DNA of 63,307 nucleotides, filler included, from Klebsormidium nitens (lineage: Eukaryota; Plantae; Klebsormidiophyceae), in NCBI GenBank assembly GCA_000708835.1. It is 5 parts of 5 records of this genome, joined end to end, with 100 filler letters (N's around TTAATTAATTAA, not from the genome) between each part and the next. Parts side by side here need not be neighbours in the genome. Positions count along the whole stretch, not along the records: positions 49,986 to 63,307 come from DF237787.1; 4 more parts are not named here. One strand, given 5' to 3'. This document shows positions 3,325-63,307 of this stretch, one piece after another. A program made the translations under genes and the position numbers. The notes under the pieces were generated by a model. That model did not search any database. It worked only from the letters and a program-made list of their open reading frames with translations, and was not told where the DNA came from. Numbering within the stretch: position 1 is the first letter of the stretch; every line of letters begins with the position of its first letter.

Positions 3325-3325
3325 C

Positions 3326-3336
3326 TGGTATCAGAG
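3326..3336 (+). promoter_or_regulatory. Primer-binding site complementary to the initiator tRNA-Met 3' end
   Basis: TGGTATCAGAG (canonical TGGTATCAGAGC) directly after a CA terminus and upstream of a same-strand gag. Confidence 0.75.
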
Positions 3337-4218: not shown

Positions 4219-4657
4219 ATAGGAACATACTTACATTGTAGATAACAAATACATTGTAAGTAGACCGTTACCCCATTCTGTTTCATCGGAAGGGTGAGCC
4301 CCGGCTACCGCAGCGCCGTCAAGGCGCTGCGACAATTCAAGTGTTCAGCGCCGCGAAGGCGCTTCCCGAAAGCTGCGGGGCAAATTCTGGACGCCGATTT
4401 CCGTCGTAATTTCCATCGACGGTTAAAATTTAAATTTACCAAATTTTGCTGCACGTGCGCGCGAGTCGACCGGCTGCGACGTCGCAAGTGTGTAACGCCC
4501 TCGCGTCGCTGCGAAGGCATTCACGCTGTCGCGTCGGACGCTGAGGCGACTCGGCGGCGCTGCCCGGGAATTCAGGGAATCGCCCGGTTTGCCGCAACGT
4601 CGCGACAGCGCCTTCAAAGCTTGCTCTCAACCTTCCGATGTTGTTACTCTCTCACCT

Positions 4658-38166: not shown

Positions 38167-39449
38167 GAGTGTAGGAACTGATTGCTTCAATCGGAAAGCG
38201 AATCGCGCGCACGCTCGAGAATGTTACGAGTGAGGTTGAATCGGCTCCGGTTTGCTGCGAAATGCAGAGCGCACAAATCTTGCGGGACGGTCCTGGTGCC
38301 GTAAAAGTTGGAAGAACAACCCGCCGAGAGTTGATCCGCCGCGTGTACTGAGTTTGACGCGCAGACATCTGGGGGTTTTTGGGACGAGAAGTATTTTGTG
38401 TTTGAACCGAATAGAAGTCCGAAAACAGCACGCATTTTCATCCACAGGAGTCTGACTCGGTGGTTTAGTTTCACTGGATGGGTTCGACTGTGCCAGAGAC
38501 TCACGGCCCGGACCGGAACGTGATGTAGCTTGACTCTGCTGCAATTCTCGACGACCACAAAGCCAGAGTGTTCTTAAAAGTGCATGTTTTACACACCACT
38601 CGATTTGAGTGTCGGCACAAACTTGAAAACTCGTTCCCCGTCAGTATCTTGATCGAAAGTATTATGCAGGCGGGACCGATCTCGAGGTTTTCAAAGCCTC
38701 AGGTCGACGGTGCCCTTGCATTGAATAAGACAATGAGTACGGTTATCCGGGAACGCGCGAGCGCACCAAGCGGGCTGCGGCGCTTGATCAGACATCATTC
38801 TACTCACTGTCAATGTGAATCGAGTATCATAATCATGACTCAGACGAGAGGCACCCTAGATTGCTTGAAGCATTGAAATACATGCGACCGCGCCCTTGTT
38901 CAACCCACACTGAAGCTAACCAGACAGAGCGCCCCACTAACGGCCCAGGGGCAAGTACACCGTGCGCAGTAGTGGAAAAACGCGAAGTTCGGAGGCGAGG
39001 AGAGGAACAAAAGGAAGAGACCTAATAATAACGAAGCGGTCGGTCTCCTCGTCGTACAAGACAAGGTGGCATTCCTCAGCCAGGAAAGACCGTACATACA
39101 GCATGCAAGAGGTCTGAAGCGGGCCAAGAAGTAGATGTATTCATGTGAGGGGATACCGGTTGAGCGAGGCTAGAACGTTTGACTAATGTACATACTAACC
39201 GAGCTATCGATCTGCAATCCTACACATGCTTGCTCAGGCTTCGGCCGTGGACCACTAGCGTTGACATACTACAAGGATGCGAAGGTATTGTCAATGCTCT
39301 AATGTGACGCTGGTATGACATTCCTGGTTGGGCAAGCACTTCGACAGATAATAATTACTATAACGACATTGACTATCAATACCTGCACGCTACCTGTCCG
39401 ATCTAGGCTGCTTCTGAGAATCCGCCATATATTCTTCTCTCAACTGCTT

Positions 39450-42400: not shown

Positions 42401-42617
42401 GCTCACGCTCTGCCCGTCCAGCACCATCTTCACCATGTTGCTCATCTGATTCGCCTTCCACGGCTCGATCGCCAGCCCCGCCCGCACCGACTTTTCGTAG
42501 CTGAAGAAGGCGTGCCTGCCGCCCGACTGTGTGAGGGTGTGATCCAGGCTGCCGAAGGGGATCCCGGCAGAGTCGAGCAGCTCCCTGTAGGCCGTCATCC
42601 CGTTCCCCAGGTCCACA
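39450..42617 (-). CDS. Virus/plasmid-type bifunctional primase-polymerase (Prim-Pol) + D5/P4-family SF3 helicase, spliced, 5'-truncated, two single-base frameshifts
   Basis: Prim-Pol motifs TQSGGRHAFF, MDLRGDGGLIILPPT; D5_N LPVKNGVIDLKDGTLKPH; Walker A GPTASGKG, Walker B VVLIDES, motif C FVVTSN. GT-AG introns 41108-40986, 40920-40806 and 40518-40059 each preserve the frame. Frameshifts at ~41980-41987 and ~41363-41366. Confidence 0.88.
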
Positions 42618-42810
42618 CTACATTGACCATCCCGTTGTCAAAAACCGCACTTTAACTAGGTACATTTCGGGGTCCCGAACTTTCCGCTGGCTGGGGCTGG
42701 CACCGTCCGATGAGTGCCACGTATAGGGACCGAGTCCAAGTCTGTCAGAATTGCACTTGTACACTGCGGCAGTACTTTCTCCGTCGAGTGTACTCGGAAA
42801 ATTCAAGGTT

Positions 42811-42910: not shown

Positions 42911-42999
42911 CGGTCCTAAATGCCCGTATCTCAACAGAGGCTATCAAGTGAGATTGCTAGAAGGAAAATCAAAAGCGTAGGTCCAAACACGGACGAATC

Positions 43000-45900
43000 T
43001 GGATTCCGTAAGTAGATTCTGAAATCGAGTGAATTTGCCGCATGACAACGCATCTAAGAAAAAATTCATTCTTGCTGAAAATAACAACCTGTTAGTCGAA
43101 TGTCATGGCGTGCAGACATCCAAAAAATAGCTCACAAATATTCCATTATGCGTGGACCACTTACCGCTTTCGCAGTGCCCTTGTTGATTTTCAATACCAC
43201 AATAGTATTGTCAATGTGCAAACGAATGTGTTGACCGTTCAATGCGGTGGAATACTATAATTGTTCGAGAATGAAAACCACAGACATTTCGTGTATGTGA
43301 ATAGGTTTGACCGGCTTGGGTGCATCCGAAAAGAGAGCTTGCAACGATGAAAGGGAGAATGTCCCCATGAGAAAGGCACCATAGCCATAGCTGGAGGAAG
43401 TATCGGTCGATAAGTCATGCAAAGAAAAGGGTTTAGTAGCATATAAATCAGTTCGACCGCTAATTTATGGCAAAATTGTTGCCACATTTCACAATTGAGA
43501 AGAAGATTGGAGAAATGCGAACATGTTAATGGGATCGGATTTCACTCCATATCACTAAATCAACGTTGAAAATTACGGCCGCCATATAAACCTTGCAAAT
43601 CAATCCAAATTGCCATTCAAGTTTCTCGATTACAACGCGGAATACTAGCATGCTGCAAGGTTTCATGACCACGCGAGGAGGAGAAGCTAAACTTTCACAA
43701 TTGAGGCAAGCTTGCATAGCCACGGAATTCAATGTGATACCAAGAAACTCGATGCCTTGACATGGAGTTATACTTTTATTCGCCCGTATATTGACTCTTG
43801 AAGCCGAGTTTACGTAGAAATTTGCGGAGTGCTCAAGATGCAACCAAGCCACTGCTTGATCGACGCGATTGAGGAAGTCGTCTGCATAGACAATGATGCA
43901 ATCAAAACATAGCCGTTTCATCATCTAACAAATGCTTGCCCGACGCAATTGCATACCTCACAAGCATTTTTCGAACCGAACAGCAGGAAACCGTCTAAAT
44001 ACATATCGTCCGAGCAATCGTTGGCCAACAAAAGCCCGATTTGTTTTCAAAAGGCCAATCTGTTGCAATCAGACAGATTAGTGGGGACGTGACGATAGAC
44101 CGCTTTAATGTTCGACCTTTGCCTTGTAGCACCCACTGCTCATGAGCCGCACTGTGTCATCTACAAAGTGTAATGAAAAGTTGGGTTGCGTCTGCGCATC
44201 ATAAATTTAGCGAACGACCAAGCGGCCGTGAAACATTGTGAATTAGTCGTACAATCGTTTCAATTTTAGGGACCGGGCCAAAACTGCGCCCGAAAGCTGA
44301 TGTTCGATTGTCATCAAGGAGAAAGATTGGAATGGCAATAATATCAGAGTGGAGCGCAGACTGAATTTGGTCGCGCGCAATGCAAACCAAGTTGTACGTA
44401 TAACATTCGAACTGCGCGATAGCCGCAAAGGCTGGGGCGTAAGCCCAAGTCGCCGCAGAGGCATTTGTGCCCGCGAGCCGGGGGCAAGCCGTACCCAAGA
44501 CACAGGTTTAGTTGTTCCACTGGTCAAAGCATCGTTGGGTGGTGGACCAAACGAAGCCATTGCTTTGGACCGCGGCGCAAACCAGAAAGGAAAAGGACTG
44601 AAAGGATTTGCTCAATTTTTCACTTTAAGAGGCTGCCATGCCGCAAAGTGCTCCATGCGCGTCTGGCAGAGACTGTCGAACGGGGTGCCGGTTGCCCATT
44701 GGTTCGTCGTGTGGTGAGAAATATAAAAATCGAAAAGATTTCCAAAGGCCATCCTTGTCCCCGCACCTCGCATTCAAGACAAGCGTCATGCATCAAATCT
44801 GATATTGAGCATCTTTTGGGCCCTAAATCCCACTGCACGGCTGTCTGAAGGCGCTTGGATGTCTTCACGCTGGCAGGTCGGACCACTTTGTCTTACGTCT
44901 CGCCACATCGCCTGACATGACATGTCGGATAAGTCGCGATTGCGCCTCAGTGACACTATCTAAGACGAGCTTTTGAGGCGCTTTTCCTTTGGAGGGAAAG
45001 CACTTTTAGAGCATTGAATGAGAAAATCATCAATCAAAAGGGGCTTTGGGGGCTGAATCGGGAAGAACGTGTATAGTCGAGGCCAACCGGCCCGACTGGA
45101 GCAAGTTGCGGGCTGGAGTAGTCGAAGGCGCCCCGGTCAGCGAAAATGTATCCTCCGGAGCAGCGACTGGCGCCACAAGACATTCGACGGCGGCGCGCTC
45201 AAAATGCCATGCGTGGGAAAACGTGCAGGGGGCATCAGGACAGGCGGTTGGGCCACTAACAGAACATGGGCATAACCCGAGGGTGGTGCAGGCACGAACT
45301 GAGCAAATCAGGGGGTTCCAAGAGGGGCAACATGTTGCACTTGAGGCCGAATAGGGTCAGGGGGAGGAGAAAGGGGGGGGGGGGCGAGGGGGGGAGCGGG
45401 AAATACACTTGCTGGGATCGTGAGATTACCGTGGCCCATCACAAGCATTTCTCGATGCATCATTGCATTGCTCTTGCATTCAAAAATGCATATATAAAGC
45501 GATCAACACTTGGGTCATATTCCAAGAAAGCCAACGGAGGCGGAGGAGCCGTTGTTGCGAGAGGAATACAAGAGATGGAAGGCCTGGGGACATCATCTCC
45601 GGCGGTCGCACAGATCGAGATGGGCCATGGCTCGTGTTTAGAAGCATGAAGGAAAAGGGCATAGGCCATTGCCACCCTCACCTGCAAATGCCGCAGCAAT
45701 ATTCAACTGAATTGGACCGAGTCGATCATCAATGGTGCGGGGCGGAGGTGGGGGAGTGGAGGAGAGAGGCCATTGCCTAACATATTGTACCCCCGTCCAT
45801 AGTACGGATTAGTAGGGGGGAGGCAAGGAAGGGATCAGAAGGCCTCCTCCCACCATAACTGCTAGTCTAGGACCACATGACTGCGATGGCTGCACGGGCA

Positions 45901-46060
45901 ATGGTGCAGATGACTGCACAAATTATGATTTTTGTGCAAGTAATGATGGTCCATCAAAGTGGAGCGCACGATCAGCACCGTTGTGCTTTGCTAATGATTC
46001 ACTCACTCTTCTTCCTACATTTCCTCATCCGGATCTGCATTGCCACCAGCACTAAACCTA
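43000..46060 (-). mobile_element. Decayed DIRS-order (Ngaro/PAT-like) retrotransposon: gag-like region, RT, RNase H start
   Basis: SFGPVPK..RLIHNVSRPLGRSLN, VDDTVRLMSSGCYKAK, IVYADDFL, KSITPCQGIEFLGITLNSVAM, FSDA. These spacings are typical of DIRS-order RTs. Many stops; no tyrosine recombinase is visible before the contig end. Confidence 0.75.
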
Positions 46061-46099
46061 GATAAGATCCGGCCAAAGCTAATGCAGAGGGAGCACAAG

Positions 46100-47846
46100 C
46101 TAAAGTTGAGGGCTGAAGCGGGGTCCTTGGAGGGGATTCCTTGAAGATGGAGCGGTGGCTTATGCCGCCAGCATAAGGCTACTCGAGCTCAGAGAAGGGC
46201 CGGGGAAGCTCGGAGGTAAGAGGCGGGAGCTCAAACCCGCCAACGTGCTATTGTTCTGGCAATGTGTGCCACATGAAGGGAAAGTGCAGGTGCGTGATGC
46301 GGAGTGCCGCAAGTGCGGCAAGAGGGGCTGCACGGAGGCGGTGTGTAGGCAGATTGCGCGCGCAAGTGGCCGTGCGGAGGAGAGAATTTCTGCGGAGGAT
46401 GCAAATGGAGTAGCTTTTACGGCGTGGGGCAACGATAGGGATGTGCGCAAAGGGGTGTGGATTGTCGACTCGGGCAGCACCCAGCATGTTACGGCCGAAA
46501 GGAGCCACTTCACGAGCTACAAAGAGCTCGTGCGTGACGAAAAGATCGTGAGGATCTGTGCTGAGTCTCTAATCGCAGTGGGCATTGGAGAAATGGAGCT
46601 CAAGTAGAAGACCCCAAGCGGTGTGAGTCCGGTAACGTTGTGGGAGGTTTGGCACGCTCGGAGGGCACATGCGACTTTGTTCGCTCTGACGAGAGCGATC
46701 GACGCAAGAGCACGTGTGGTGGTGCTCGAGGGAGAACCGCCCAAATTGAAACGGACAATCTGGTCCGTATGGAGGCAGTCAAGCGTGGGGGACTGTGGGA
46801 AATTGAGACCGTGAGGAAGCAGAGAGCATTTTTTGCAAGGGGTCAGGTAAAGGGGAACCGGGTGTGCGCCACGGCAAAGGGGCCGATAAAGCGGAAGCGT
46901 GGTGAGAAAGACGGTGAAGGTCGTGGAGCTCGACCTAGACGAGTTAGACAACGAAAATGGGGGCGTCGAACGAGAGAGGAACTTCTGTGGGGGCGGATGA
47001 GGTGCCGCGTACATATCCCGAAATGGTCGAAAAAGGGGCGGAGTTTGAAGTGAAGCGCGAGAAAGATGCGCACGCGCCCGCGACGGACCGCGGTTGCGCC
47101 GAGCGCACAGATTCAAAAAGAGGCCAATGTGGGCCGATTGTGGAAATTGTGCAAGAAGTTGTGAAAGTGTTCGAGGAGATCGGAAAGGGCAATGAGAGCC
47201 CAAAGACGGCGGTAGAGAGCGAGCCCGCCGGTGTCGAATAGGCAACAGAGAAGCCTGTAGTGGAGTCCAATAAGTTGGAAAGATATTCCGCAAAAGTGCG
47301 ACGGGAGCCCGCGAAGTGGTATCGAGCAAATGTGGGAGCAACAGCGGAAGCCGTGGGAGCCGAAAAGCCGGAGCACGGAGTGGAAAAGACGTCGGTCGGA
47401 GAAGAGCGACGCAGTGCGCTACCAAAAGAGCAGAGATGGCAAAAGTGGAGGCGTCTGGGTGACGCCAAAGGCAAAGAAGACAGCCCGCAAGAGAAGCGTG
47501 ACGAGTTAGAGGCCTTAGAGTAAATTCGTCTAAGTGGAAGTGTTAGAATTTGGTGATTATGATCAGCCGGATTACTATGTGATTAGGGTTCGACCCGAGT
47601 TGAGTTTGAACTAGTGAGCGCCGGCGTGCACGAACGGCGGTTAGGCGGTTAAACCGTTTGGCGATTTGAAGGTTAGGCGGTTGAGAGCGGCCGTCAGTGT
47701 AAGCCGTAGATAAGTGCATAGAAGACTAAGATTGAGTGTGATTGTGAGCTAGGCTAGTAAGCCAAGTAGTTTGTGACGTTTAGGTTAGTAAGCCTAGTAG
47801 GCTAGTGAGCCTAGTGGAACGGAAGAGACCCGTAAGACTCTTAACA
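46100..47846 (+). mobile_element. Internally deleted Ty1/copia fragment with 3' LTR
   Basis: Degenerate knuckle CRKCGKRGCTEAVC, protease VWIVDSGSTQHVT, VGIGEMEL, post-integrase RYSAKVRREPAKWY, then an LTR. No integrase core, RT or RNase H. Confidence 0.75.
47541..47846 (+). repeat. Copia-type LTR (306 bp)
   Basis: Begins TGTTAG and ends TTAACA, directly after the Copia coding remnant. Confidence 0.65.
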
Positions 47847-48899
47847 CTTGGTGAAAACCACCAATGTGATACATCATTCCAATAGAAGGTTGTGGAGAGA
47901 AGGAAGCCGCTTGTGAGGCGCTTCGTGTGTCTTAGGATGCATGGCTGCCATCATTGAGTGATGAGCATAGGTGTCAGGCAACACGATAAGACCCGATGAA
48001 GAGTAACTCAACTACACTACGACCTCCCTACCACGAGTTTCAACAGGGCCGCTTTCAATAGGCACGGCATACTGGTGACGCCCCTCACCACCGAAGAGGA
48101 GAAGACGCGCTTCTACCTCGCCAAGCACCAACAGTTGTACTTGTGGTCGGTCGCTGGCAATGGAGTGCGAAAGGTGTTTCGCTGACACATGCTTCGGGTT
48201 CTTCGTCACCGTCAGCGATCAGCAAGTCTATTTGGAGTGTGCAGAAGGAGAAGAGGTCTCAAGCATGCAGACGGCAACCGAGCTCAAGGAGCTTAGAGGG
48301 TATCTCAGAAAGTGGGGCCCCATGGCAGACTCGTGCTTGTGCAAAGAGGGGGGGCTGCTGGGCGGGGTTATCGAGGAAACTGGATAGGGTTACCTGATCC
48401 TCGACGACTGTGGTTCCCCGCTGGAGGATGGCCCCCGGAAACCGGTGAGCAGTACAAACGGCGGGCAATTGAGAGTCGGGAACGAGCCCGAGGTGACTAC
48501 AAAGGAGGGAATTGAGTATTTGAAAGAGAGTGCGGCCGCTACAAGGGACAAGGCTGCGCGGAAGGGCCTGGGCTCATGATTCGTGGGTTAGAAGGGTGCG
48601 TGCTCTATCAGGGGGATCGGGAAGAGTTGAAGGATATCCGGAAGTTTGCGCTCGAGCCTGAACTGTGCGCATTGGATGGCATGAGCACAGGTACGGGGCG
48701 CTGAATCTGCCGGCAGTTGACGCCCGCCCTGAGAAGAAGCCAGTGGCCTTGGTACGGAGGGGCCGAGACCTTGCGCCAAGATATGACGACGGGTCCTCAC
48801 GCAGAGTTGGCATGTTGAATAAAGCATAAGGATGTGGTGGAGATGCAGAAGCATTCGCCCACCTCCAAACTTTGAGCTTTTCGAGCCACTTCCTCAATT

Positions 48900-49525
48900 T
48901 ATTTGTGTTGTCCTCCCACCTTGATCAAAGTGTTACTCCAGCAGACTGAAAGCGTCGATACAGGGGACTGGATTGGTGTCGAAAGAGGGGCAACGGAAGG
49001 CGCCTCACTTTTCCAGACGCCCACCGAAAGACCCTTGCGTCATCCATGTTGGAACCTCCTCTCCAAACCCCAAGAACTCCACAGCAGCGGCATACTCCTC
49101 CGGCAAACCCTCCAAGGCGCAGCTCCCTCTGAGACGGTTTGTCCCGCCGCCTACAAGTCTATCTTGAGCTTCCGGAATTCCCTCAGGTACTCTGCAATGG
49201 CTTTCCCCTTGGTCAACCTTAGACCCGTCAGCTTCTCTTGATCCGAATCATGCGCGCATTGCTCCTCTTCTCAAACAGTGTCCTCCAAATTCTTCCACGC
49301 TTTCTCCGCAATGGGTTCCCCCTCAATCAACTTCACATAAGCATCTTCCGTGTGGATCAGCATCAACCCCCTTGCTTGGCTTGACACTTTCCTTCCGTCC
49401 ACGGACTCCGGCTCGTCCAATGCACACAGCCATCCCTTGTATGCTAGAAGCCCACGAAACTTGGCCTTCCACGTTGACCGATTCTTACACACAATTGCGG
49501 ATTAGACACTCTGTCTCCCGCCATA
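48900..49525 (-). pseudogene. gag: Ty1/copia gag 5' fragment
   Basis: TWKAKFRGLLAYKGWLCAL..SSQARGLMLIH..AEKAWKNLE..LTGLRLTKGKAIAEYLREFRKL, with stops. Confidence 0.7.
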
Positions 49526-49584
49526 AAAAAAAGAAGCCGTTTGTGCATGGAACAGCTACGGTGCGGATTTCTGTACCGGCAAAC

Positions 49585-49885
49585 TGTTGAGATTAATGTT
49601 GGTTGACGGACAGATTGTGGACATTAAGAACAAAGAGAACAACTACTTGTAAGATTAAGATGAAAGAGAGTGAGGATTTGACACATTACGATGAAAGAAG
49701 TTGAAGACCCGGTAGACTAGAAGAGAAGGGATAAAGGGCTTGGCAGAATTAATATGAAAAGGATTGAGTGCTTGATAGATTAAGATAAGAGGACTTGAGT
49801 GCTTGGCAGATTAAGATAAAAGACTAGTTGAGTGCTTAATGGTTTAAGATGAAAGGGATTTGTGTGTTTGGCAGATTAAGACCAA
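49585..49885 (-). repeat. Probable 5' LTR of the minus-strand Copia, containing a 31-33-bp degenerate tandem array (49738-49885)
   Basis: Terminus reads ..CTCAACA on the minus strand upstream of gag. At least five units like GCTTGGCAGATTAAGATRAAAGGATTGAGT; cut by the contig end. Confidence 0.6.
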
Positions 49886-49985: not shown

Positions 49986-52900
49986 GTGACTACCCTAGGT
50001 AGTAATCTGGGAGTCTCAGGAGCAGTGACTGCGGCAGGTGGGTTGACCTCGTCAAACGGGCTCAACGTGAGCTCGGGAATTACGAGCTTGGGAAGTAATC
50101 TCTCCGTGACTGGCCCTATCGTGTCGGTAGCAGGAATCACCTCTTCCAACACCCTCAATGTTACAGGCACGGCCACTCTAGGCAGTAACTTGGCGGTCAC
50201 GGGGCCAATCTCTGCCTCTGGTGCGACTCTGAGCGCTGCGCTCGCCCTAGGATCCAATCTACTAAATACCACCGGCGACATTTCCACTTCGAGCAACCGC
50301 GCTGGTTCGATCTACTCCACGACGGAAAACACCAACGCTCTGACGATCAACAGCAACCTGACCGTATCAGCGGGCAGCACCACCAACATCGGGACGGATC
50401 TGAGGCCCTCGAGCAACATCGCTTACGACATCGGCACGACTTCCAACAAATGGCGGACGGTGTATGCCAGCAACTTCAACGCAGCCGGAGGCACACTGAG
50501 CGGAGACCTCAATCTCAATGCGAACAAGCTGCTGAGTACTGGAGATATTGCTACGTCCAACGCTCGGATCGCAAACGCGTACCTCTCCTTGGCAGACGTC
50601 AGCTACATCACGGCTGGCAATGCCACAGTCAACGGTTCGTTGCAGTGTACGTCCATCGATACTCAGAACAGCAACATCAATCTCGGTACGGGGGCCATCT
50701 ACGCCGGCAGTCTCAGCACGAGCAACGCGATATCCGGAGGAGCTCTGATCGTGACCAGCCTGAGTACTTCGGGTGGTGCCATCAGCGCCGGAACGATCAC
50801 CGGCACGAGTCTGAGCGCGGGGACGGGCTCGGTCAATGGAGGCACTGGCAACTTCAGCGGAAGCGTGACGGTGAATGGCGATCTGCAAGTCGGAGGAGTG
50901 TTGAACTACATCAGCAGCACCACTCTGCAGGTCCAGGACAAGAACATCGTCCTAGCTACCTCGTCCAACGCCACGGATGCCCTAGCTAGTGGTGCGGGGC
51001 TGTACATACAAGGGGCCGGTTATTCGAACTCCAACAACGCCATCTCGTGGACGTGGAATACCGGATCCAATGGCAACTACTGGCTGCCGAGGGGAGGAAA
51101 CATCTCTCTCCTGGGAGTGGCCGGATCGACCAAGATGGTCAGCCTGGTCACTTCTGCGGACGGGTCCTTCAAACTCCTGTCGGACGATGGCTCCACGGCG
51201 ACGAGCACTGCGCTCTTCGGGACGCCTCTCCTTGCAAACAGCTCCAACCTGGACGTCGGCAGCACTTCGAACGTATGGGGAACGGTCTACGCGACCACCT
51301 TGGGAAACTCCAACAAACCGATAACTTCTCTGAACGCGACTTCCATCACCAGTGGTACGATATCGAGCGGGTCCATCAACACGAACAACTCCAACATCTC
51401 TCTAGGTACGGGCAGCATCACCGGAGGGGCCGTGAGCGGAACCACTGGATCGTTCTCCGGGGGCATAACGTCTTCCAACGGGCTCACGGTGACAGCAGGC
51501 AGCTCCACCTTCTCCAGCAACCTAGCAGTGACCGGCCCTATCGTGACGGCAGGGGGCTTGACCTCGTCGAACGGGCTCTCCGTGACGTCTGGGAACGCAG
51601 TCTTCGCAGGGGGGCTGACGTCTTCCAACGGGCTCAACGTAGCTTCGGGCCCGGCGACCTTCGCCAGCAACGTCTCCATCTCAGGGCCAACTTCTTGTGC
51701 CTCTCTGACAGCCTCCGGGACCGGCACCTTCAGCAGTAACGTCTCCATCACGGGACCGACTTCCTGCGCGGCTTTGACCGCGTCCGGCACTGGAAGCTTC
51801 AGCAGCAACGTCTCCATAACCGGACCTGCGTCGGTGGCTGGCCTCTTGACGGCATCCAATGGCCTGACGGTCTCGGGAGGTTCCGTATCCCTTCCGAGTG
51901 GGTCCATCGCGGCCTCGTCCGTGGGCAACCTACCTGCGTCCCAGATAACCTCGGGCACCTTCTCAGTGGGCTCGTTCGGAAGTACGAACATTAGTACCAC
52001 GGGAACTCTTGGGGCTGGAGCGAGCACTCTCGGGGCGCTGACCTGCACGACCATAAGCACCGGAAACAGCAACATCACCGCTGGAACCGGCACGATAACG
52101 AGCGGACAGCTCAATCCCACCACTACTGCGACTTACGACCTGGGATCTTCCAATACGACGTGGAGGAACGCCTATCTTTCCGGCACGATGACGGCGAGTA
52201 ATTACGTGGGCCTGCAGCGAAAGTTGTGGAACGCAGGGGCGCTCGGCATCCAGTCGATAGCCGCCAACAGCTACTTCAAGTTGGCTACTCTGCTCGATAG
52301 TGGTAATACCGCCAGTGCACAGGGTCTTCGGATCGTCGGACAGCTGGGTGGTTTCGGGAACACGCAGACGGCGACGGTAGACTGCACCATAGTCTCTCGA
52401 GGCAACTTTTACGTGAGAGGCACTATCCAAGGCTTCATTTCAGGGGCCAAGCAGCGCGCTGACATCGTCGTCTACATAGAGACTAACGGGCAATATAGCG
52501 TCTATTATTACAACCCCGCGCAATTCTCGGTTTGGGACCTCAGCATCGAGGGCGGCTACGGTACGATCCTCTACGAACCCACCTCGACGGCCATCACTGC
52601 TCCCACAGGCACCCTCGTGACGTCATCTGTGCTGAGCATCCTCACTACCTCATCCGAATTCTCGTCAGGAACGGTGACGACGAGTTTCAACAACTTTAGC
52701 TTTTCGAATTCCGCATCGTCAGGGAATCCCGTTTGGAATCTAATCGGATCTTCAAACTCGGGATCGATACTGAGTGGCAGCATCACCAGCGGCCAACACA
52801 ACCCATCAGCCACGGCGACGTACGACCTGGGAGCATCTGGCACGGCGTGGAGGAGTGCTTACCTCTCGAGCAATATCAACGTAGGTGGTTCTATCACGGG

Positions 52901-55900
52901 TTCCAACGGCCTGACGATCTCGACAGGCTCGGTATCTTTGCCGAGTGGGTCCGTTTCGGCCTCTGCTGTGGGAAGTCTACCTGCTTCCCAGATCACATCA
53001 GGCACGTTCTCGGTGGGCTCGTTCGGCAGTACGAATATCAGCACCACGGGGACTCTGGGGGCTGGGGCCAGCACTCTGGGGGCACTGACTTGCACGACCA
53101 TAAGCACCGGAAACAGCAACATCACGGTAGGAAGCGGTTCCATAACGAGCGGTCAGCACAATCCCACTACCACCGCGACTTACGACCTGGTGCATCTGCG
53201 ACCGCATGGAAAAGTGCTTATTTATCCAGCAATCTGTCAGTCGGGGGCGCCATAACAGGGTCCAACGCATTGACAATATCAGGAACCGGCACTTTCAGCA
53301 GCAACGTCTCCATAACCGGGCTGACGACAGTGGCGGGCCTATTGACCGGTTCGAATGGTCTGACGGTGTCTGCTGGCACCGTCTCCCTGCCTAGTGGGTC
53401 CATATCAGCTTCCGCAATCGGTAACCTACCTGCATCGCAGATCACGTCTGGAACCTTCTCGGTTGGCGCGTTCGGTTCCACAAACATCTCGACCACTGGT
53501 AGCCTCAGTGCCGGGGGGACTACCGTATCTTCGCTTAGCGCGGCGACCGGCGTCTTGGGACAGAGCACGAATAACTGGGCCAAGCGGACCTTCAGCATCA
53601 CCGGTCAGACCTTGTATTCGACACCGACGTGGTGGAAGATCGCAGCGTTCTGGAACAACGGGGCTTATTGCTCCGGTTGCCTTACGATAACCGGGCTCCT
53701 CGCACGTGTTTCAGGGCCGGTGAATTTCACGGCGAACATCGGCTTCCACACTCAGAACTCAGTCTGGAACGCTTCCCTCGTCCTCGACAGTCCGGACAGC
53801 ACTGACCCTTTCGGATCGGGAACATTCGACATCGCACTCTACATCGACAACAGCAAGAATCTGTTCGTGTACGCCAAGCAAAATATGGATTATCTGACCA
53901 TGAGCCTCGATGTCACGACATGCCAATTCGAAGGGAACGTTTCCGCATCGAGCATCTATCCATCTACGTCTTACTCGCTCGCATACGCGGCGACAAACAC
54001 TCAACTGATGGCAGCAGACACCGCGCTCACGTCCGTTCTGAGCTCTTCCAGCTTCTACACATTATGCGGCTCCAACGTCCGAAAGACGAAGGGGTCCGTC
54101 TCCACCTTCGGGGGTGCAGTCACGGCTGGATCCATCTCGACCACCGGAATTCTGAGTGCGGGAGGTCTCACGTGCACGAGCAGTGCGGTCAGCGCATCCG
54201 GCACCGCCAATGCCGTAACTACGACGGATTACGCACCCTCGTTGGCAGCCGGAAATTCTGTGGTGAAATACTTTGGAGTCGCAAACACAACAAACAACTC
54301 TGCGTGGCACCTTTTCAAAAACGTAGGTGCAGGATCGACGTCCAACTACGCAGCATTTGGGATACAAGGGTTTGGTGTGGGAACTGGGTCCTTCAATGCG
54401 AGCGCTAACGGAAACTTTGGTGTTTGCACGGTGAATCCTACATACACTCTGGACGTGTCCGGAACTCTTCGAGCTAGTTCCAATTTTGCAGTTTCTGGAG
54501 GAACGGTCACTCTGCCCTCTGGATCCGTTGCAGCATCCGCAATCGCGAATCTAGATGCATCTAAGATCACGACGGGAACTTTCTCCGTAGGGTCATTCGG
54601 TACAAACATTTCCACGACTGGGACGCTGACGGCGTCTGGTGCATTCACTCTGCCTGGACGCTATTACAAGTCCTATACCATTGCTTGCGACACGACTGCT
54701 GACTGCGCTTACGAATTCGCATCCTTCACGACAGGAACTGCCACGACTCTCGATGTCACCATAGTATCCCCCAAGACGAGCAACATCGAATTCACGAAAA
54801 GGTATTCCATCACCGTCGGGAGTAGTCTGCTAACGGCGGACGGTGCTTGGAGGCGATGCATACCACTGTCCACACACAACGGATATCCGTCGAACGAGGA
54901 CTATGAGCTGCACGTGTCATCACCAGGTGCGACCACCGTCACCGGCGGATCCCAGTACGAACTGAGACTCAGACTGTTACACAGCGTCTCGACCATAGCC
55001 TCGACTATAACCGTAAACGTGACCGCTTATTATGCCCAGGATGGGCTCTTCACGACTTCGAATCTGTCGAGTACCTATGTCGAGGACACCTGGAGAACGC
55101 TCAATTATCTGCCTTCGACCGCCCTGACACAGACGGGAGGTCAGGTGGGCGTGGGAACGACCAGTCCATCCTACAAGCTAGACGTGGCCGGAAGCTTGCA
55201 TGCATCTGGGGCCGCCACATTCGATTCGACCCTGACAGCTGGGGCAGTGTCGACGTCAGGGGCGATCACCACCACGGGAACGGGGACGTACGACATCGGA
55301 ACTAATGCGAACAAATTCGGAAATCTCTTCACGGCGTACATCTACCCTACCACCTTTGTCACGAACCTCGTTCCTGTCACCCATAACGCGTACGATGTGG
55401 GAGTCTCGGGGGGCAACTACTGGAGGAACGCATACTTTGCTGGGACGGTGAATGCATCGACATTGTCCGCAAGCACGTACACCGGTCTCCCCAGAAAGTA
55501 CTGGAATGCTACGACTCAAGGCCAATACAGTGCTACGCCCGGAACTCTCTACAAGATCGGGGTGCTTCCAGCCATCGGCGATGCCTCTGGTGGTGGAGCG
55601 GTGCGGATTTGCGGATCCATGGGAGGCTTTGGCACCAATCAGAGTGTCACGGTAGACTGCACGATTGCTTCGCGAGGTGGGTATGTCGTCAAGGGCTCCG
55701 CAAATGGATACCTCAGTGGCGCAAAAACAAACGCAGACATCGTCACCTACGTTGAGTCAAACGGCAAGTTTACGATTTACCTCAAGAATCTCGGGACTTA
55801 CGTCTGTTGGGATCTCAGCGTCGAACCAGCTAGTATCAATGCAACCGTCAATGAGCCAACTTCCAGCACTGCCACCGCAACTGGGACTCTCAACACATCA

Positions 55901-57607
55901 TCGGTTCTCTCCGTGCTCAGCTCTGTCTTTGAAACGAGCACCTCGACTGCCTCCTTTGGCAACTACTCTTTCTCTTCGAATGCCGCCAACCTCACCTGGG
56001 CATCATCGGGTACCGCTACTGGAGGCTCGGTCTCTTGCGGCCCACTAACTTGTACTACCTTGTCTGGGACTACGGGAAGCTTCAGCGGTGCAATCTCATC
56101 AGGGACGAGCTCGATCCAATATGGAACTCTCGGGGCGAATTCTGCAACATTGTCTGGAGCCTTGTGCAGCCTAAACGCAGGCTCCAACCTTAATAACATA
56201 GTGATAGGAAGCCCAAGTGGACAGGAATATATCCGATTTAACAGCACCTGGTATACTGGAAACCCCAATTACCCTTATGTCATAAATTCTGGGTACGGGG
56301 GGCACATCTGTTTCAATCATACCACCGGTTCGATGTCTTTCGCAACAGCTCCTACCTCCAACATCCCCGCCTATCAGGTGAGCCCTGTAGCCGCTCTGAC
56401 GATTGACAAGAATACGAACGTGACGCTCGCTGGAACATTGACGGCCACAACGGGATCTTTTACAGGTCCTGGCGGTGCTTCGGCCGGAGTCATGAATATT
56501 GCCTGCACTGCGACCAGCACGAGCGTGATAGCTTCATCCACGTTTGCAGCAGGGCTCTCCAGCGCTACATACATCCTAAGCCCGTACGGAGTCAACACGA
56601 CGTCAGTTAACAACGCTGGATATCTCGGATTCAACTACGTGGGTGGAGCAGGCTCTTCGAGTAATTACTATGCCTTTGGCTGTTGGGGATACACTATCGG
56701 GTCGCAATCCTTCAACGCTTGTGCAAACGGAAATTTTGGGATTTGCACGGCTACACCCGCATATACTTTGGATGTAAGCGGTACCCTTCGGACGACCGGC
56801 ACCCTCACTTGCGCTGGCCTGATTCCAGGTGCCACAAACACGAGCGATCTGGGCACGACGAGCTTGTTGTGGAAAAACGCGTATCACACTGGAACGCACT
56901 ACAACAGCGGCAACGCAGGCTTCACCGCAAATTCAACCACAGCACTCACGACGGTCGCTCCCTTCCACTTCTACGGTGCTTGCGATGTCAACGGCACCAC
57001 GGCAGTTATCGGGGTCAACACTTCCGGATGCGGTCTGGTTCTGGACGACGTAGCACAAGCCAAGTGGAGGCTCGGGACGGGTGGTTATAACCTCACTTTC
57101 CAACAACATACCAGTACGTCGGCAACCAACTATGGGAATGCGCAATTCACGACCAGGGTCTACTTCAGCTCAAACGGTGACGTCAACGCATCGAGGCACG
57201 TGTACGCAGGTTCCAACGTGTACGCATCTGGGTCATGTTATAACAATGGCAATGCGATCACTTCCGACAAAAGACTCAAGACGAACGTCCGCCCAATCGA
57301 GGGTGCGCTGTCCAAGATTTGCCGGTTGGACGGAAAAGTATACGACTTCAAACCGCACAATCAGAACATGGTGAAGCCGAATTCGTCCGGCTTCATCGCC
57401 CAAGAGGTGCGGGAATTGTTCCCAGAATGGATAGCTGAGTGGGATGATGGAGTAACGGAGGCCTTCCCAGGAGAAGAGCCCATACTTTGTATCGATGCTG
57501 GTTATGGTCTGCAAGCATACCTCGTGGAGGCGATCAAAGAACTTCGAGACGAAAACGCCGCACTCAAAGCCAGAATGACCGCTCTGGAAGAACGTTGCAA
57601 TTGCTAA
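49986..57607 (+). CDS. Giant modular fibre/spike protein (>=2540 aa, 5'-truncated) with C-terminal Peptidase_S74 intramolecular chaperone
   Basis: ORFs 49986..53255 and 52733..57607 join if one G is restored at 53189-53190 (DLG-ASATAWKSAYL, matching the sister repeat DLGASGTAWRSAYL). Ser/Thr/Gly-rich repeats, YDLGxxxxxW repeats, VGVGTTSPSYKLDVAG; C-terminus TSDKRLKTN..GFIAQEV..YLVEAIKELRDENAALKARM. Confidence 0.88.
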
Positions 57608-57667
57608 CGATCAGGCCTGGCGTTTCCTCCACGAAGAAACTTTCCGGGCATACTCAAAGGAGCGTGC

Positions 57668-58459
57668 ATGGCGCTTCCGAGCTGCTCGGCGTTGCAGAAG
57701 CTCAGACTGCGATTCGTCGCACGTATAGACACTCCGAAGTACGCCATCTTTTACGCCCTACGCAAGATGGACTCCATGGATCTATTCGAAGCCCACTACC
57801 GCATGGGGTTCGACCAGAACCGGATCGGCCGCTGCTATATCTCCCCGAAGACATGGTGCATACTCAAAGAGGACGGATTCGTCGCTCGGGGAGAGGACCC
57901 CAGGGTTTTTTTCTCGGACGGGAAGCCTTTCGTCATGGACAACACGTGGGGCGATGCTTCGCTCCTGGATCAATACAAGCGCTACGACCGTATCAGATTG
58001 CCCTCCACCGGGAAGAACCTCACGATCGTACCCGACGAGGGACGCACGCTCATGGTGGAATGGTTCAAGCCCCTCCGCGTGCACGAGACGCGAGATCTCG
58101 CAAAGGACATGTGGACGCCAAAGATCATGAGGCACGAGAACGCCGACCTCAGCTACAGAGGAGGCACGCCCGGATATAGTTGCGCGGAAAAGAACCACTT
58201 TTACGGTTTCGGACATAGGACATCCATGGATGAGAAAGTCAGGCATAGACCATTCCTCTGGATATTAGATACCGCGAAGTGGAAGGTCGTGACATCGGAT
58301 CTAGATAATTGCGACTGTTTCTCCAACAACATAGTAGATCCCACGAGCGTGGTGGAGCATGGGGGCAAGAGATATCTGGTGACTGCGGAGTCTGACCTGC
58401 CGTGGTTCACCCGACAACAACGATACTACACTTGCGTCTACGAGATGGTACTGGACTGA
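57668..58459 (+). CDS. Five-bladed beta-propeller glyco-enzyme (GH130 / beta-mannosyltransferase-like)
   Basis: Motifs EDPRVF, GKNL, YRGGT, YGFGH..RHRPF, IVDPTS in the expected order; intronless. Confidence 0.55.
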   Translation: MALPSCSALQKLRLRFVARIDTPKYAIFYALRKMDSMDLFEAHYRMGFDQNRIGRCYISPKTWCILKEDGFVARGEDPRVFFSDGKPFVMDNTWGDASLLDQYKRYDRIRLPSTGKNLTIVPDEGRTLMVEWFKPLRVHETRDLAKDMWTPKIMRHENADLSYRGGTPGYSCAEKNHFYGFGHRTSMDEKVRHRPFLWILDTAKWKVVTSDLDNCDCFSNNIVDPTSVVEHGGKRYLVTAESDLPWFTRQQRYYTCVYEMVLD

Positions 58460-58540
58460 TCTATTCCCAGACCCTCCCTCTTTACATCGAAGACCTAACT
58501 TCCATCAAGATGTCCTCGGAGAAAGATGCAGCTACTGCCT

Positions 58541-58798
58541 TCATCCTGCTTTCATCTTGATTCCCATAGGCCCGTAAACCACACCCCCTTCATCTAACAG
58601 TTCAGCCAGTGTGCTGATGCGGTGTGTGCTCACATGAGTCAGGACCGCTTTCTTCTGGTTGGAATATCCCAGTACATTGGCGACATCATTCCCTCGAAAC
58701 CAGGGGTGTTTCTTCTCTACCCCGACCAGAAGAAATCGGACATTCTTTCCGTCCCAAATGATCAGCTGTTGATCCGCATCGAACGTGAAGTTCGCCAT
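58541..58798 (-). pseudogene. BRO-N domain protein, apparently C-terminally truncated
   Basis: HPWFRGNDVANVLGYSNQKKAVLTHV is a typical BRO-N core. The ORF stops after 85 aa without the usual later IxESGLYxL segment. Confidence 0.75.
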
Positions 58799-59165
58799 AC
58801 TTCCTCTCTACGAGAGGGCGCGAAAGAATTCCTAGACTTCTAGACGCGAGATACCGCCTGTGGCTGTTGTTACTTTCCCTAAATCGAAAGCGGTTGCCTC
58901 CTGATGTTTTTGATGTATTTGGTTGTCATGATCACGTTCCCTAAGCCAACAATCTGTCTTCCATCCAATGAATGTTCCACAAGATGATCATTGAACGGCC
59001 TTCGCGCGCCCAAGTGCCTGCATCATTGACGTTCAAATGCAGTCATGCTTTGCAGTCCGGATGGTGTAGAAAAACGTCGTGCATGGCCGCACCGGGACTC
59101 TGAGAGGTACATCCTGTCTGCGTCCCACGTGCACAATCTATGTTACTAACATATCAATATACTCT

Positions 59166-60080
59166 ATGTTTGTAACTGGTCACCTCACGGAAGGCTTCTT
59201 TGGCCGGGCACTTATCTGGATTCTAGAATTACTGCCATTCTTCAAGAGCTCCAACGAAGACGTGACTTTTGAGATAGGTTGCAAGAATTACGGCGTTCCT
59301 CCGGAGTACGATTGCATCGAACCCTATTTCGATCACAGAAGGCCAGACAAGACGCCCCGGGAGAATGCGCGAGTCGAGTCTATCACCGGATTGAAGAAGA
59401 GGCACTGGACGCATTTTACTGAATTCGAGACGCCGAACAAGTCGTGGAATGAGTATTTCTCGTTCAAGCCGCGAGTCACAAACGAGGTGAACGATTTCGT
59501 ATCCGAGAACTTTGTTGGAAGAACTTTGGGCATTCATTACCGCGGGACCGATAAGCAGGTAGGACATTGCATCCAAGGCGGAAAGATCGATTACGAAGAC
59601 ATGGATGCGATCATCGAAGACTTTTGCAGTCGGCCCGAAAAAGTTCCCGACACGATCTTTGTCACGAGCGACGAAGTGGACTATGTGACCCACTTGCATG
59701 CGAGATTCGGGACGCGTTTCCGCATAGTACACAGAGAGGATTCCATCAGGAATGCAAGAGATGTACAGAGGCCTGCGTTCTACGGGGTCGATTTGGAGTC
59801 TGGCGCGACTCTCAAGAGGTCTGACGAGCAGGTCTTTGCACTAGGCCTCGATGCCATATGCAACGCGCTTATCCTGTCAAAGTGCGATGCCGTGCTGAAA
59901 ACGTCATCCGCTCTGTCGGCGTGGGCCAAGATCTTCGAACCGAATCTGGAAGTATACAGGGTCAACGCATGCATGTACGATTGGTTTCCAGACGCAGCGA
60001 TTCCCCTCTATACTTCGTCGGACCCACTCGTACAAACGATCCTTGCAAAAACACTCTTTGGCGAACGGTCCAAAGCCTGA
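59166..60080 (+). CDS. NodZ/GT23-like (O-)fucosyltransferase family protein, 304 aa
   Basis: LGIHYRGTDK, IFVTSDE and LILSKCDAVLKTSSALSAWA correspond to fucosyltransferase motifs I-III; ATG 59166 follows an AT-rich stretch. Confidence 0.72.
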   Translation: MFVTGHLTEGFFGRALIWILELLPFFKSSNEDVTFEIGCKNYGVPPEYDCIEPYFDHRRPDKTPRENARVESITGLKKRHWTHFTEFETPNKSWNEYFSFKPRVTNEVNDFVSENFVGRTLGIHYRGTDKQVGHCIQGGKIDYEDMDAIIEDFCSRPEKVPDTIFVTSDEVDYVTHLHARFGTRFRIVHREDSIRNARDVQRPAFYGVDLESGATLKRSDEQVFALGLDAICNALILSKCDAVLKTSSALSAWAKIFEPNLEVYRVNACMYDWFPDAAIPLYTSSDPLVQTILAKTLFGERSKA

Positions 60081-60082
60081 CT

Positions 60083-60883
60083 CTACCAAGATGCAGCAGT
60101 TCCCCTGATCCTCAGCACGCGCTCTGGGGCGTAAGGCTCCCCACATTTTTCACCGCGATAGCCCCGTTGGTTTGAGAAGACCAACGTCCCGTCTGCATCC
60201 TGCTTCGTGTTGTAGTGCGTGTGGCCGTGAGCCCACGCCACCACGGGCGGGCCCATAAACTCGGTCAGGTCCGTGCCGAACGCGTAGTTGGTCGGTCTCC
60301 CTTCGTAGGCCGGTGCGGAGACTCCCTTCCGCAACGGAGCATGGTGCGTGAGGACCAGCACCGGCTCCCGTCTGCCCTCTGCCTCCAGAATCGCCTCCAG
60401 AACGAACTCAAAGTCTCTCTCGTGCAGGGCGTTGGTGTCTTCGACGGTGAGCGGACGGAGGTCGGCCCCGACCTTCTTGCCGATGCGGACGTAATCGTTG
60501 ATCGTATTGCGCACGACGTCTCTGGCATGGTCCGGGACGCGACTCCACAGAGTACAACCGATCACCCTGACGCCTCTGAGCGAGATGCTCTTGCGGTCCA
60601 TGAAGTGCACGTTGTCGTGCTTCTTTGCGAGCTTCGCTATCTTACTCTTTACCTCCTCGTATTCCCCACCGTAGAACTCGTGATTCCCGGCGATTATCAG
60701 GACGGTCTCGAACTTCCTCGAGAGGTCCTCCACGAGCGCCGCGTACTCCGCGCTCCTCGGTTCGCTGATGTCTCCCAGTAGAGCGATGTGGGGTGCTACG
60801 GCCGGAATGATCGGTAGCTCTTTAGAATGCTCCATCTCCATGTGGAGATCGGATACTATCTGGATGTCCAAGCAGGCGGCCAT
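60083..60883 (-). CDS. Calcineurin-like metallophosphoesterase
   Basis: All five metal-binding motifs present: SDLH, GDI, GNHE, THH, HGHTH. Confidence 0.92.
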   Translation of the reverse strand: MAACLDIQIVSDLHMEMEHSKELPIIPAVAPHIALLGDISEPRSAEYAALVEDLSRKFETVLIIAGNHEFYGGEYEEVKSKIAKLAKKHDNVHFMDRKSISLRGVRVIGCTLWSRVPDHARDVVRNTINDYVRIGKKVGADLRPLTVEDTNALHERDFEFVLEAILEAEGRREPVLVLTHHAPLRKGVSAPAYEGRPTNYAFGTDLTEFMGPPVVAWAHGHTHYNTKQDADGTLVFSNQRGYRGEKCGEPYAPERVLRIRGTAASW

Positions 60884-60969
60884 CTTCAGCTGCTAGTACC
60901 TCCTGATAGAAGATTTTGCAGGATCGAAACGTACCAACCATATTATCTGGCGTCTGAGTATACGAGCCA

Positions 60970-61242
60970 ATGGCGAAGTGTGGCGCGAAGACCGCATCCG
61001 GTAAAACCTGTCGTAGGACGGTGTCCTCCGGTCACAAGTGCTGCTATCAACACAAGCGGACCAAGTCCGGCAAAAGAGCGGTGCCGAAAAGAATGACCAT
61101 GAGAGCCCACCCTGCCAACGCCGACCGCATCCATCAGCTGACCGAGAAGCTGCTGAGAAAGGGTCTCACCAGAGTGGAGATGAAGGAGCTGAAGCGGCGC
61201 GTGAGATCTAGGGACGAGATGATGAGATCGTTCTGGCTCTGA
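60970..61242 (+). CDS. Small basic protein with CCCH zinc-finger motif (DUF5763-like)
   Basis: CGAKTASGKTCRRTVSSGHKCCYQH, followed by a Lys/Arg-rich helix. Confidence 0.6.
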   Translation: MAKCGAKTASGKTCRRTVSSGHKCCYQHKRTKSGKRAVPKRMTMRAHPANADRIHQLTEKLLRKGLTRVEMKELKRRVRSRDEMMRSFWL

Positions 61243-61305
61243 AACCCGACTCGTACCATATGGGCCCTCGCCTATCCCTGCGCCATCATGTCGCAAACCA
61301 TATGC

Positions 61306-63262
61306 CTATCCCGACCTGGTTTGAAGGTCTGAGGCATCGGGTCTAGGGGTTCTATCCCGCGGCGAAAGAAAAGGGGGATCATGCGATGCGTCATCCTGCA
61401 CGAATTTTATCTTGGTCACCCCATCTGCCAACAGTTCTAGCTCGGCGAGAGCCTTCATGACGGTAAGCATGAGCCGGTTCTTATTTGCCAGTCTGACGTC
61501 GACTTGCTGAAAGTTTGTGCGATGCGACACGAGAAAAGTCATTTGTATCTTTTCATTATCAAACTGCTTCATGTTCAACGTCACCTTTGGGTACCACTGC
61601 TCAGGGTTCGCTTGTAGGAAGCGCAAGATGCACGCTCTCATCTCTTCGATTTTCTTCTGAGGGGTGCCCCAGCCCAGCGCCAGATCGATGAGCTCGATCT
61701 GATCGGGGGACCTGTAGTAATTGCTGATAACTTTCAGAGCCAGTTGATTGTTGCTGTAGTATACCTTGCTGTTGTCCGCTGCTAGGAGGATCGTGGACAG
61801 CAGCTGCATCTCTTCCACCACGTACGTTTGCCCGTCCACCCGGATGATATCCGAAACGTCAAAGGGATGCGTTACGAAGAGGAAGATTATGGATTCGAAG
61901 ACGGTCTTGCAGGTGTTGCCAAAGACGAATAGGGAGGCCAGGAAGGATCCCGACGTTACTACGAGCAGCTTCTGCACGTTGACGTCGAGCACGAAGAGGC
62001 ACATCAGGACGACGATAACTCCCACCACCCAATCCAACAGCCTGCCGAGGGATCTTATCGCAGTCTTCGTATCGCTCAGCGTCAGAGCCAATGCCTTCCG
62101 CTCACGCACCACGTTGATGAGCCAGTTCTCGAACGATTCGCACGTCACCACGCCCTCCTCGCTCTCGAAAGCCTAGAAAGCCCGCTCGGCGTCGCTTTCC
62201 TCCAAGAAATGGAACAGGATGAATCACCATATGATGTCTCCCCTCTGGTACCACGTTCTTGAAGATGTCCCTCGCGGCGTCCCGTCCGTGCTCCTCGCTC
62301 CGGACGTCCCTCTGCTGCTGCGTGGAGATGGTCGTGATCTTGGTGCTGCGCACGAAGCGCATGATGCTCTGGAACGTCCGAACGCCGAGTTGCCCCTGAG
62401 AGAGCGTAGCCAGGATTCCCACCTCCTCCTGGGGTTCGCCGCGTATGCCGGTCGTCGCCGAGCTGGAAGATCTATTGAGCATGTAAGCAGGTATGGAGAG
62501 TCGTTCTATGACGTAGTGGTCGAACATGGCGTCCCTAATCCTCTCGAAGTAGGCCTTTCGGTGGAAGGCGTTCGCGAGGATCTTGATGAATATCATTTTT
62601 CCCGCCATCACGAGGGTGGCGATCTGAGTGCACACTAGTATCTGATTCACCTTTACCGGTATCTTGCCCACGATCTTCCTTCTCCCGTTGAAGAGGACCG
62701 TCCAGACGCACAGGACTTGCAGGCACCAGATCACGTTCCAGGCGGACCTCCGCACCCCGTAAGCAACGTACAGTATCTTTCCGTTGTCCTTGAAGATCAT
62801 CTGGAGTAAGAAGATCATCGTGTACACCAGAACCCTTCCTATGAGCCTGCCCGAGAGCAGGGTCAGGAGCAGGACGGTCCACTTCCAGACCTCCAGCTCC
62901 GCGATGGTGTACCTCGAGAAGAAGAGCAGGGAGATCACGATCTGCGCTACCAAGTAGGCACCCAGCGTCACCTGCCCATATGCGAGCAATCTCCTCGAGA
63001 GACGGGTCTCGCGTACCGTGGAGGGGGCCCGAGGATCCTCCTCGTCCTCCTCGCCCTCTTCCTCCTCCGAGAGGGCTCCCAATATCGACGTCTTTGGTAC
63101 CTCGCCGGTCTTTATGGCGTCCAAGACCGCCGAGTGTGGTACGTTGTGCATGTTCCCCTGCAGCGGTCCGCTCACCAAAACCGTGGGTTCGAAGTCCCGA
63201 GACTTGGTCATCGACGCCCGCCGCCCGAATTTCAGGGAAGCGCTTCGCTTGTAGTCCTGCAT
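61306..63262 (-). pseudogene. Intronless plant-type MscS-like (MSL4-10 class) mechanosensitive channel, disrupted
   Basis: LEVWKWTVLLLTLLSGRLI, ILYVAYGVR..VIW, KILANAFHRKAYFERIRDAMF, FVFGNTCKTVFESIIFLFVTHPFDVSD, SNYYRSPD, WYP. Frame break at ~62218 and in-frame TAG at 62175-62173. Confidence 0.9.
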
Positions 63263-63307
63263 CTCCTCATTTTCCACCAGAATATTATCACGGGAATTAG
63301 CATAACC

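Follow-up and report, generated by a model that had tools for sequence, protein, structure and literature searches.

The closest described counterparts of the locus studied here come from the same algal genome. In its accessible text, PMC5294986 (Gallot-Lavallee and Blanc 2017) describes viral contigs of Klebsormidium flaccidum, assigned to Phycodnaviridae, that carry five PolB, six MCP, six ATPase and five VLTF3 genes; it favours distinct insertions over contamination, describes captured expansin and cyclin genes, and states that up to 2017 giant viruses of streptophyte algae were unreported. The accessible parts of Sarre et al. 2025 (PMC12344493) and of its preprint report CHG-methylated giant endogenous viral elements (GEVEs) in Klebsormidium nitens. 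We analysed a window of 63,307 nucleotides of K. nitens DNA (assembly GCA_000708835.1), made up of five contigs with N-linkers between them, and concentrated on its last contig (49986–63307, 13,322 nt, from DF237787.1), hereafter the segment. We consider it probable that the segment stems from an endogenous giant virus, likely phycodnavirus-like and a nucleocytovirus, that its decay is recent, and that it is one of several diverged copies in K. nitens. The K. flaccidum assembly of the 2017 study is now called K. nitens. We know of no reported giant virus of a streptophyte alga, and the inserts of such a virus are therefore the main record of what it encodes.

Set beside the inserts described in the accessible text of PMC5294986 and PMC12344493, the segment lies in the same organism's assembly, on a virus-dense contig with no obvious host junction, and shares with them several diverged copies, captured plant genes and spurious fused gene models. 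With giant-virus inserts of Klebsormidium on record since 2017 and their methylation since 2025, the segment is likely one more piece of this known set, and its scaffold may be shown among the contig maps in Figure S5 of PMC5294986. It adds a likely attachment fibre, glycan enzymes and, after expansin and cyclin, a third captured plant gene, an MSL10-type mechanosensitive channel; the accessible sections 3.2 and 3.4 of PMC5294986 name expansin and cyclin but no mechanosensitive channel. The initial annotation of this DNA had proposed a fragment of an uncharacterised virus. The viral part of that proposal is supported, but the copy is decaying, diverged sister copies lie in the genome, and Klebsormidium inserts of nucleocytoplasmic large DNA viruses (NCLDVs) were already published.

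Gene content and composition of the segment

Seven genes span 12,618 of the 13,322 nt (94.7% coding), with intergenic gaps of 2–367 nt. True introns are absent from them: the channel and phosphoesterase genes are colinear with single-open-reading-frame (single-ORF) relatives, and along its whole length the channel matches a 653-aa single-ORF relative in two blocks split solely by a frameshift. The initial description of the contig as intron-free is thus borne out. Crude counts of splice signals fell only slightly below host values and carry no weight here. Near-continuous coding holds as a measure of density, but the genes are not all intact, with a frameshift in the fibre, a frameshift, stop codon and deletion in the channel, and a BRO-N stub. 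The S74 fibre, Bro-N, metallophosphoesterase and channel were each recovered as named (Pfam E 1.6e-13, 2.6e-8, 6.6e-11 and 1.1e-9, respectively). A gene set first called typical of nucleocytoviruses proved compatible with that group but non-diagnostic, each family also occurring in phages or bacteria. What is nucleocytovirus-like is the combination of dense, intron-poor coding with mixed affinities, namely a plant-type channel, a bacterial-leaning fucosyltransferase and a virus-type fibre. We infer the nucleocytovirus label from this architecture, from the context of the paralogues and from the published inserts of the same genome.

The GC content of the segment (0.55) is host-like. Its trinucleotide profile correlates with those of two gene-bearing host contigs at r 0.56–0.58, against r 0.97 between those two contigs, and the segment has neither CpG depletion nor clear CHG depletion. 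The tetranucleotide GATC was about twofold over-represented in the virus-like parts of the window at 57608–63307 (2.1) and 39401–42810 (2.0), the host contigs lying at ~1.0–1.1.

Source models, sister copies and decay

The segment DNA underlies two gene models, KFL_008380060 and KFL_008380070, both on one 31,392-nt K. nitens scaffold. The fibre is KFL_008380060 from model residue 379 onward, and the N-terminal 345 residues of the channel, together with the phosphoesterase, are letter-identical to KFL_008380070. The 'introns' of these models step over lesions, step over a 1,149-nt open frame and join channel and phosphoesterase over an intervening gene. Both models are probably artefacts of annotating viral DNA, a concern for plant channel phylogenies that use them. 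Four K. nitens proteins, KFL_008380070 (P0005), KFL_008380060 (P0238), KFL_006770160 (P0235) and GAQ90635.1 (P0004), are eukaryotic models laid on intron-less DNA, and false introns and false fusions occur among them (channel with phosphoesterase, and phosphoesterase with EsV-1-7 repeats). The initial assignment to a virus in a streptophyte-alga context was supported by the identity with K. nitens models and by a K. nitens phosphoesterase paralogue that adjoins an EsV-1-7 repeat gene, with no phage DNA and no close bacterial relative found.

The channel gene (61306–63262, minus strand) is a pseudogene, with a frameshift at ~62218, an in-frame TAG at 62175–62173 where the paralogue has Gln, and a 12-nt deletion near 62463. 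This paralogue, GAQ90635.1, is 96% identical and lies on a 46,880-nt K. nitens scaffold. Two DNA runs from one sample, X1 and X3, possibly the source of the assembly, were examined as contigs, and the channel indels stood at about half of their depth. Two extra nucleotides at 62218 were present at 11.4 of 22.4 depth in X1 and 23.2 of 39.5 in X3; such roughly half depth indicates that broken and intact channel copies coexist, and the second copy fits GAQ90635.1. Depth in both runs was ~10–20 over most single-copy parts and ~30–57 over parts of the fibre and channel. At the fibre break, X3 lacked the insertion at depth 10.8 and X1 held two contigs with the extra base; the fibre frameshift is likely real, though less firmly shown than the channel indel. 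A 4,543-nt X1 contig with zero differences spans the fibre end to the Cys/His gene. No RNA run was listed among the datasets containing the segment, which has no bearing on its expression. Substitution tallies were without strong deamination bias (X1: C>T 69, G>A 54, T>C 57, A>G 47).

Soil metagenome X5 covered 30 of 30 bins of the segment; the four long pieces listed were 95–98% identical, and X5 has extra bases at both frameshifts. X6 covered 23 of 30 bins and was more distant. The near-identical soil copies lacking the indels suggest that the integration, or the virus, is recent. Frameshifts, a stop codon and a deletion, broken and intact copies in the same runs, and paralogues on other scaffolds together give the segment the decay and the diverged duplicates expected of a GEVE.

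A plant-class mechanosensitive channel

Viral mechanosensitive channels have been described before: in its accessible text, PMC6163359 (Greiner et al. 2018) reports one 261-aa bacterial-like MscS and two 101-aa MscL-like proteins. The present case resembles those viruses in having a mechanosensitive channel gene in what is probably a large DNA virus, and differs from their bacterial-type proteins of 261 and 101 aa in its class, a 653-aa plant-class MSL. That was the sole relevant report, and no viral MSL10-class channel was found in a literature search whose coverage left out most subscription papers.

The channel of the segment is intron-less and belongs to the MSL10/FLYC1 class. Intact relatives, P0002 and P0003 (653 aa, 79–83% identical), come from independent data, P0002 from a 32-kb contig. 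P0002 aligns with AtMSL10 at E 5e-76 over ~510 residues and conserves the positions of F553 and G556, residues with a role in the AtMSL10 pore. Checked on P0002 and on the channel pieces in the window, the sequences have the MscS beta-domain, the MSL10-homologous N-terminal transmembrane block and the pore-helix Phe/Gly of MSL10-class (plant group II) channels, for which tension-gated conductance is predicted. The ~510-residue alignment and the F553/G556 positions of P0002 are shared with plant MSL10 and Flycatcher1 (PDB 8JWE, 8TDJ, 7N5D); the N-terminal region of the present channel is ~75 residues shorter than theirs. Unlike land-plant MSLs, to which it is ~33–37% identical, it sits on a long branch of its own, lacks introns and is a broken copy.

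Among the 120 channel matches listed, four form the close intron-less clade (83–99% identical in the C-terminal part), and all named matches outside it are land-plant MSLs (39–45%), in agreement with the plant-type channel first proposed; none of those listed is bacterial, and there is no separate close K. nitens host gene among them. The clade formed a long branch in a quick tree of 28 of these matches. Because that tree held no algal host MSL and no outgroup, and long-branch joining was flagged, the donor cannot be named. P0002 had no relative in JGI metagenomes. The intact P0002 and P0003 suggest that the gene was kept under selection outside the present copy, and the intron-less MSL10-type clade is likely a new, virus-borne element.

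A repeat-rich fibre with an S74 chaperone

Fibres with an S74 end are known from prasinovirus and Heterosigma akashiwo virus (HaV) genomes, according to the accessible text of PMC12906663 and 10.64898/2026.02.06.704369. The fibre or adhesin gene of the segment (49986–57607, plus strand) shares with those fibres a long repeat adhesin, a C-terminal endosialidase chaperone and a probable algal virus setting; it differs from them in belonging to a Klebsormidium-linked, modular family, with PA14 in some members and no sequence relative in IMG/VR. Some 2,540 aa lie inside the contig, in open frames at 49986–53252 and 53192–57604 separated by the frameshift near 53190. The 378 extra N-terminal residues of KFL_008380060 had no match anywhere in the window. 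As the model starts 378 residues before the contig, the fibre would reach ~2,900 aa, and ~18 kb of scaffold lies upstream of the contig. We considered and dropped the idea that the window edge cuts the contig: the channel belongs to the later of two models, with ~18 kb of scaffold upstream.

The fibre is rich in Ser, Thr and Gly, with internal repeats, 53 N-x-S/T sequons and an S74 end containing S-D-K-R-L-K; the Ser-Lys pair of S74 domains has a role in autocleavage. Resemblance to phage tail fibres (PHROG) is confined to the end of the protein, and neither this end nor the 263-aa protein described below matched DNA in 50,697 phage records. Four of the 11 matches to the fibre are from K. nitens, that is, three further K. 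nitens paralogues. The family (P0239–P0247) is built of modules: its repeat blocks are shuffled, and some members contain PA14 domains, a make-up resembling a variable host-attachment region.

Glycan enzymes and remaining genes

The 304-aa protein encoded by an intact gene at 59166–60080 (plus strand) is firmly assigned as a NodZ/FUT8-like fucosyltransferase, its donor and acceptor being putative. Profile matches include NodZ (E 3e-17) and FUT8, with Pfam NodZ matched by 12 of 41 alignment members. The predicted structure has a mean predicted local distance difference test (pLDDT) of 92.5 and NodZ as its best PDB fold, and the protein keeps an HYRGTDK motif; it thus combines the GT-B fold and the H-x-R-x-x-D GDP-fucose motif of GT23/NodZ enzymes. 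Sixteen of 80 viral fucosyltransferase loci bear giant virus metagenome-assembled genome (GVMAG) names, all within the best-scoring 42. An IMG/VR scan with the single fucosyltransferase sequence found no relative, and across 154 relative loci no gene of the segment was shared beyond the bait, save one S74 match. The fucosyltransferase of locus L177 is on a 3-kb contig of a Flavobacteriaceae metagenome-assembled genome (MAG) and nests among near-identical viral-contig proteins, so the contig may be a mis-binned viral one.

The second glycan enzyme is less secure. The 263-aa protein at 57668–58459 (plus strand) is probably a GH130/DUF1861-like glycosidase, a lead from Atlas matches to DUF1861 (0.95), to an 82%-viral cluster in which Nucleocytoviricota are commonest (0.94) and to GH130 (0.93), at a recognition value of 2205, under the 2300 mark. 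It had no match in Pfam, NCBIfam, PHROG or PDB, and its single-sequence model reached a pLDDT of 32. The glycan enzymes of the initial annotation therefore stand for the fucosyltransferase, with the glycosidase just an Atlas lead.

Three other genes complete the set. The truncated BRO-N gene (58541–58798, minus strand, 85 aa) covers Pfam Bro-N profile positions 8–46 of 96. The calcineurin-like metallophosphoesterase gene (60083–60883, minus strand, 266 aa) is intact; its closest relatives are 49–54% identical, and one of their clusters includes K. nitens KFL_006770160, a paralogue at 50% whose model is fused to nine EsV-1-7 repeats. The EsV-1-7 family takes its name from a phaeovirus gene. The basic 90-aa protein at 60970–61242 (plus strand) had been called a CCCH finger, a label we withdraw: its motif is C-X9-C-X9-C-C-X2-H, the canonical spacing being C-X8-C-X5-C-X3-H, and it matched neither zf-CCCH nor any other Pfam family at E<=0.5. 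A weak PHROG match (E 6e-4) and Atlas leads (0.81–0.83) were recorded, and the protein is likely a zinc-binding nucleic-acid binder. The sole long gap in the segment, 58799–59165 (367 nt), has no ATG-started ORF of at least 60 aa, is thinly covered by X5 and X6, and may represent a gene lost to decay.

Origin of the segment

Several observations weigh against a giant-virus origin. None of the NCLDV hallmark genes MCP, PolB, A32, VLTF3 and D5 was found among the seven genes of this fragment in Pfam, NCBIfam and PHROG scans, as the initial annotation had already noted, and in this the contig differs from the inserts of PMC5294986, which its accessible text describes as found through core genes. 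The 13,322 nt contain no host junction. IMG/VR scans with the fibre alignment, the 263-aa protein and P0002 returned no relative. BRO-N matches phage antirepressor PHROGs, S74 matches phage families too, and the named phosphoesterase relatives outside the close clade are mostly eukaryotic (30–40%). The fucosyltransferase is common in bacteria as well (353 matches, best 35%). A quick tree of the best 40 of 80 bacterial loci, 32 distinct viral proteins scoring >200 and 10 representatives placed it beside two other proteins and four Pseudomonadota MAG entries (Shimodaira–Hasegawa-like approximate likelihood ratio test, SH-aLRT, 99) and apart from the GVMAG entries, which counts against a clean giant-virus signal. 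The signals of giant-virus affinity are the Atlas lead for the 263-aa protein and the GVMAG relatives of the fucosyltransferase, but the fucosyltransferase itself is placed beside bacteria. Finally, no individual bridging of the stop codon or of the fibre frameshift was seen in the read tables.

One improbable alternative is that the segment is viral and endogenous but goes back to a different kind of large DNA virus or element, for instance a mirusvirus or Polinton-like virus. That none of the seven genes is nucleocytovirus-restricted, and that the fibre lacks an IMG/VR relative, would suit such a source; the published viral inserts of Klebsormidium, however, carry NCLDV core genes, the K. 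nitens phosphoesterase paralogue adjoins an EsV-1-7 gene, and a ~2,900-aa fibre with glycan enzymes and a channel would suit a large genome. The literature that pairs Klebsormidium with mirusviruses consists, as far as its accessible text goes, of the methylation study only.

The DNA might also be free or persistent virus from an infected culture, or a reactivatable insert, rather than a fixed fossil, which we regard as quite unlikely. The window holds no junction, in five of the seven genes the open frame has a plausible length or shows no more than a truncation, and soil metagenome X5 has its 95–98% identical copy without indels. Against these stand the frameshifts in both fibre and channel, the presence of several diverged copies instead of one genotype (an argument also made in the accessible text of PMC5294986) and the methylated GEVEs that the accessible part of PMC12344493 reports in K. 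nitens. A bacterial or phage contaminant, or a host gene cluster with a channel retrocopy, is very improbable, for although the fucosyltransferase falls beside Pseudomonadota, S74 and BRO have phage-type matches and the channel is plant-type, the channel matches listed include no bacterial protein and no separate close K. nitens host gene, four of the 11 fibre matches are from K. nitens, and the trinucleotide composition is unlike that of host contigs.

As a piece of an endogenous nucleocytovirus, the segment would represent a surface module of a large algal virus, comprising fibre, glycan enzymes and a captured MSL. The ancestral fibre would trimerise through its self-cleaving S74 chaperone and serve attachment, while the fucosyltransferase and the probable glycosidase would act on virion proteins or the host wall, whose glycans they would build or trim. 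An ancient capture from a cell of the plant lineage likely supplied the MSL10-type channel in intron-less form; the channel would open under membrane tension in an infected walled cell, releasing ions and turgor, a property that fits a virus entering and leaving a walled, turgid cell. Within the K. nitens genome, silencing has likely set in and selection on the segment has likely ceased, hence its two largest genes are broken.

It is possible, though we hold it doubtful, that a giant virus of streptophyte algae still circulates in soil with a working plant-class MSL10 channel that vents turgor or depolarises the walled host; it would be the first viral channel of this class. In that case the genome of the circulating virus could be approached through the intact soil copy in X5 and the 32-kb contig that encodes P0002.

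Other contigs of the window

The remaining four contigs are eukaryote-like, with remains of long terminal repeat (LTR) retrotransposons and intron-split F-box, LysM and histidine-kinase genes. At the end of the contig spanning 27738–42810, a heavily frameshifted, intron-less PrimPol-D5 primase-helicase gene (39453–42637, minus strand; Pfam D5_N E 3e-10, Prim-Pol and Pox_D5 weak) adjoins the intron-split host histidine-kinase gene. The trinucleotide profile of this part correlates at r 0.82 with the viral contig and 0.76–0.81 with host contigs, and an IMG/VR scan with the piece found no relative. The stretch may mark where a viral or other mobile insert joins host DNA; a table in the accessible text of PMC5294986 appears to have no D5 entry for the Klebsormidium alga. 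Decayed retroelement sequence lies at 1–6704 and 42911–49885, the first contig containing pieces of aspartyl protease and reverse transcriptase and the fourth (42911–49885) having a low CAG/CTG content (0.73).

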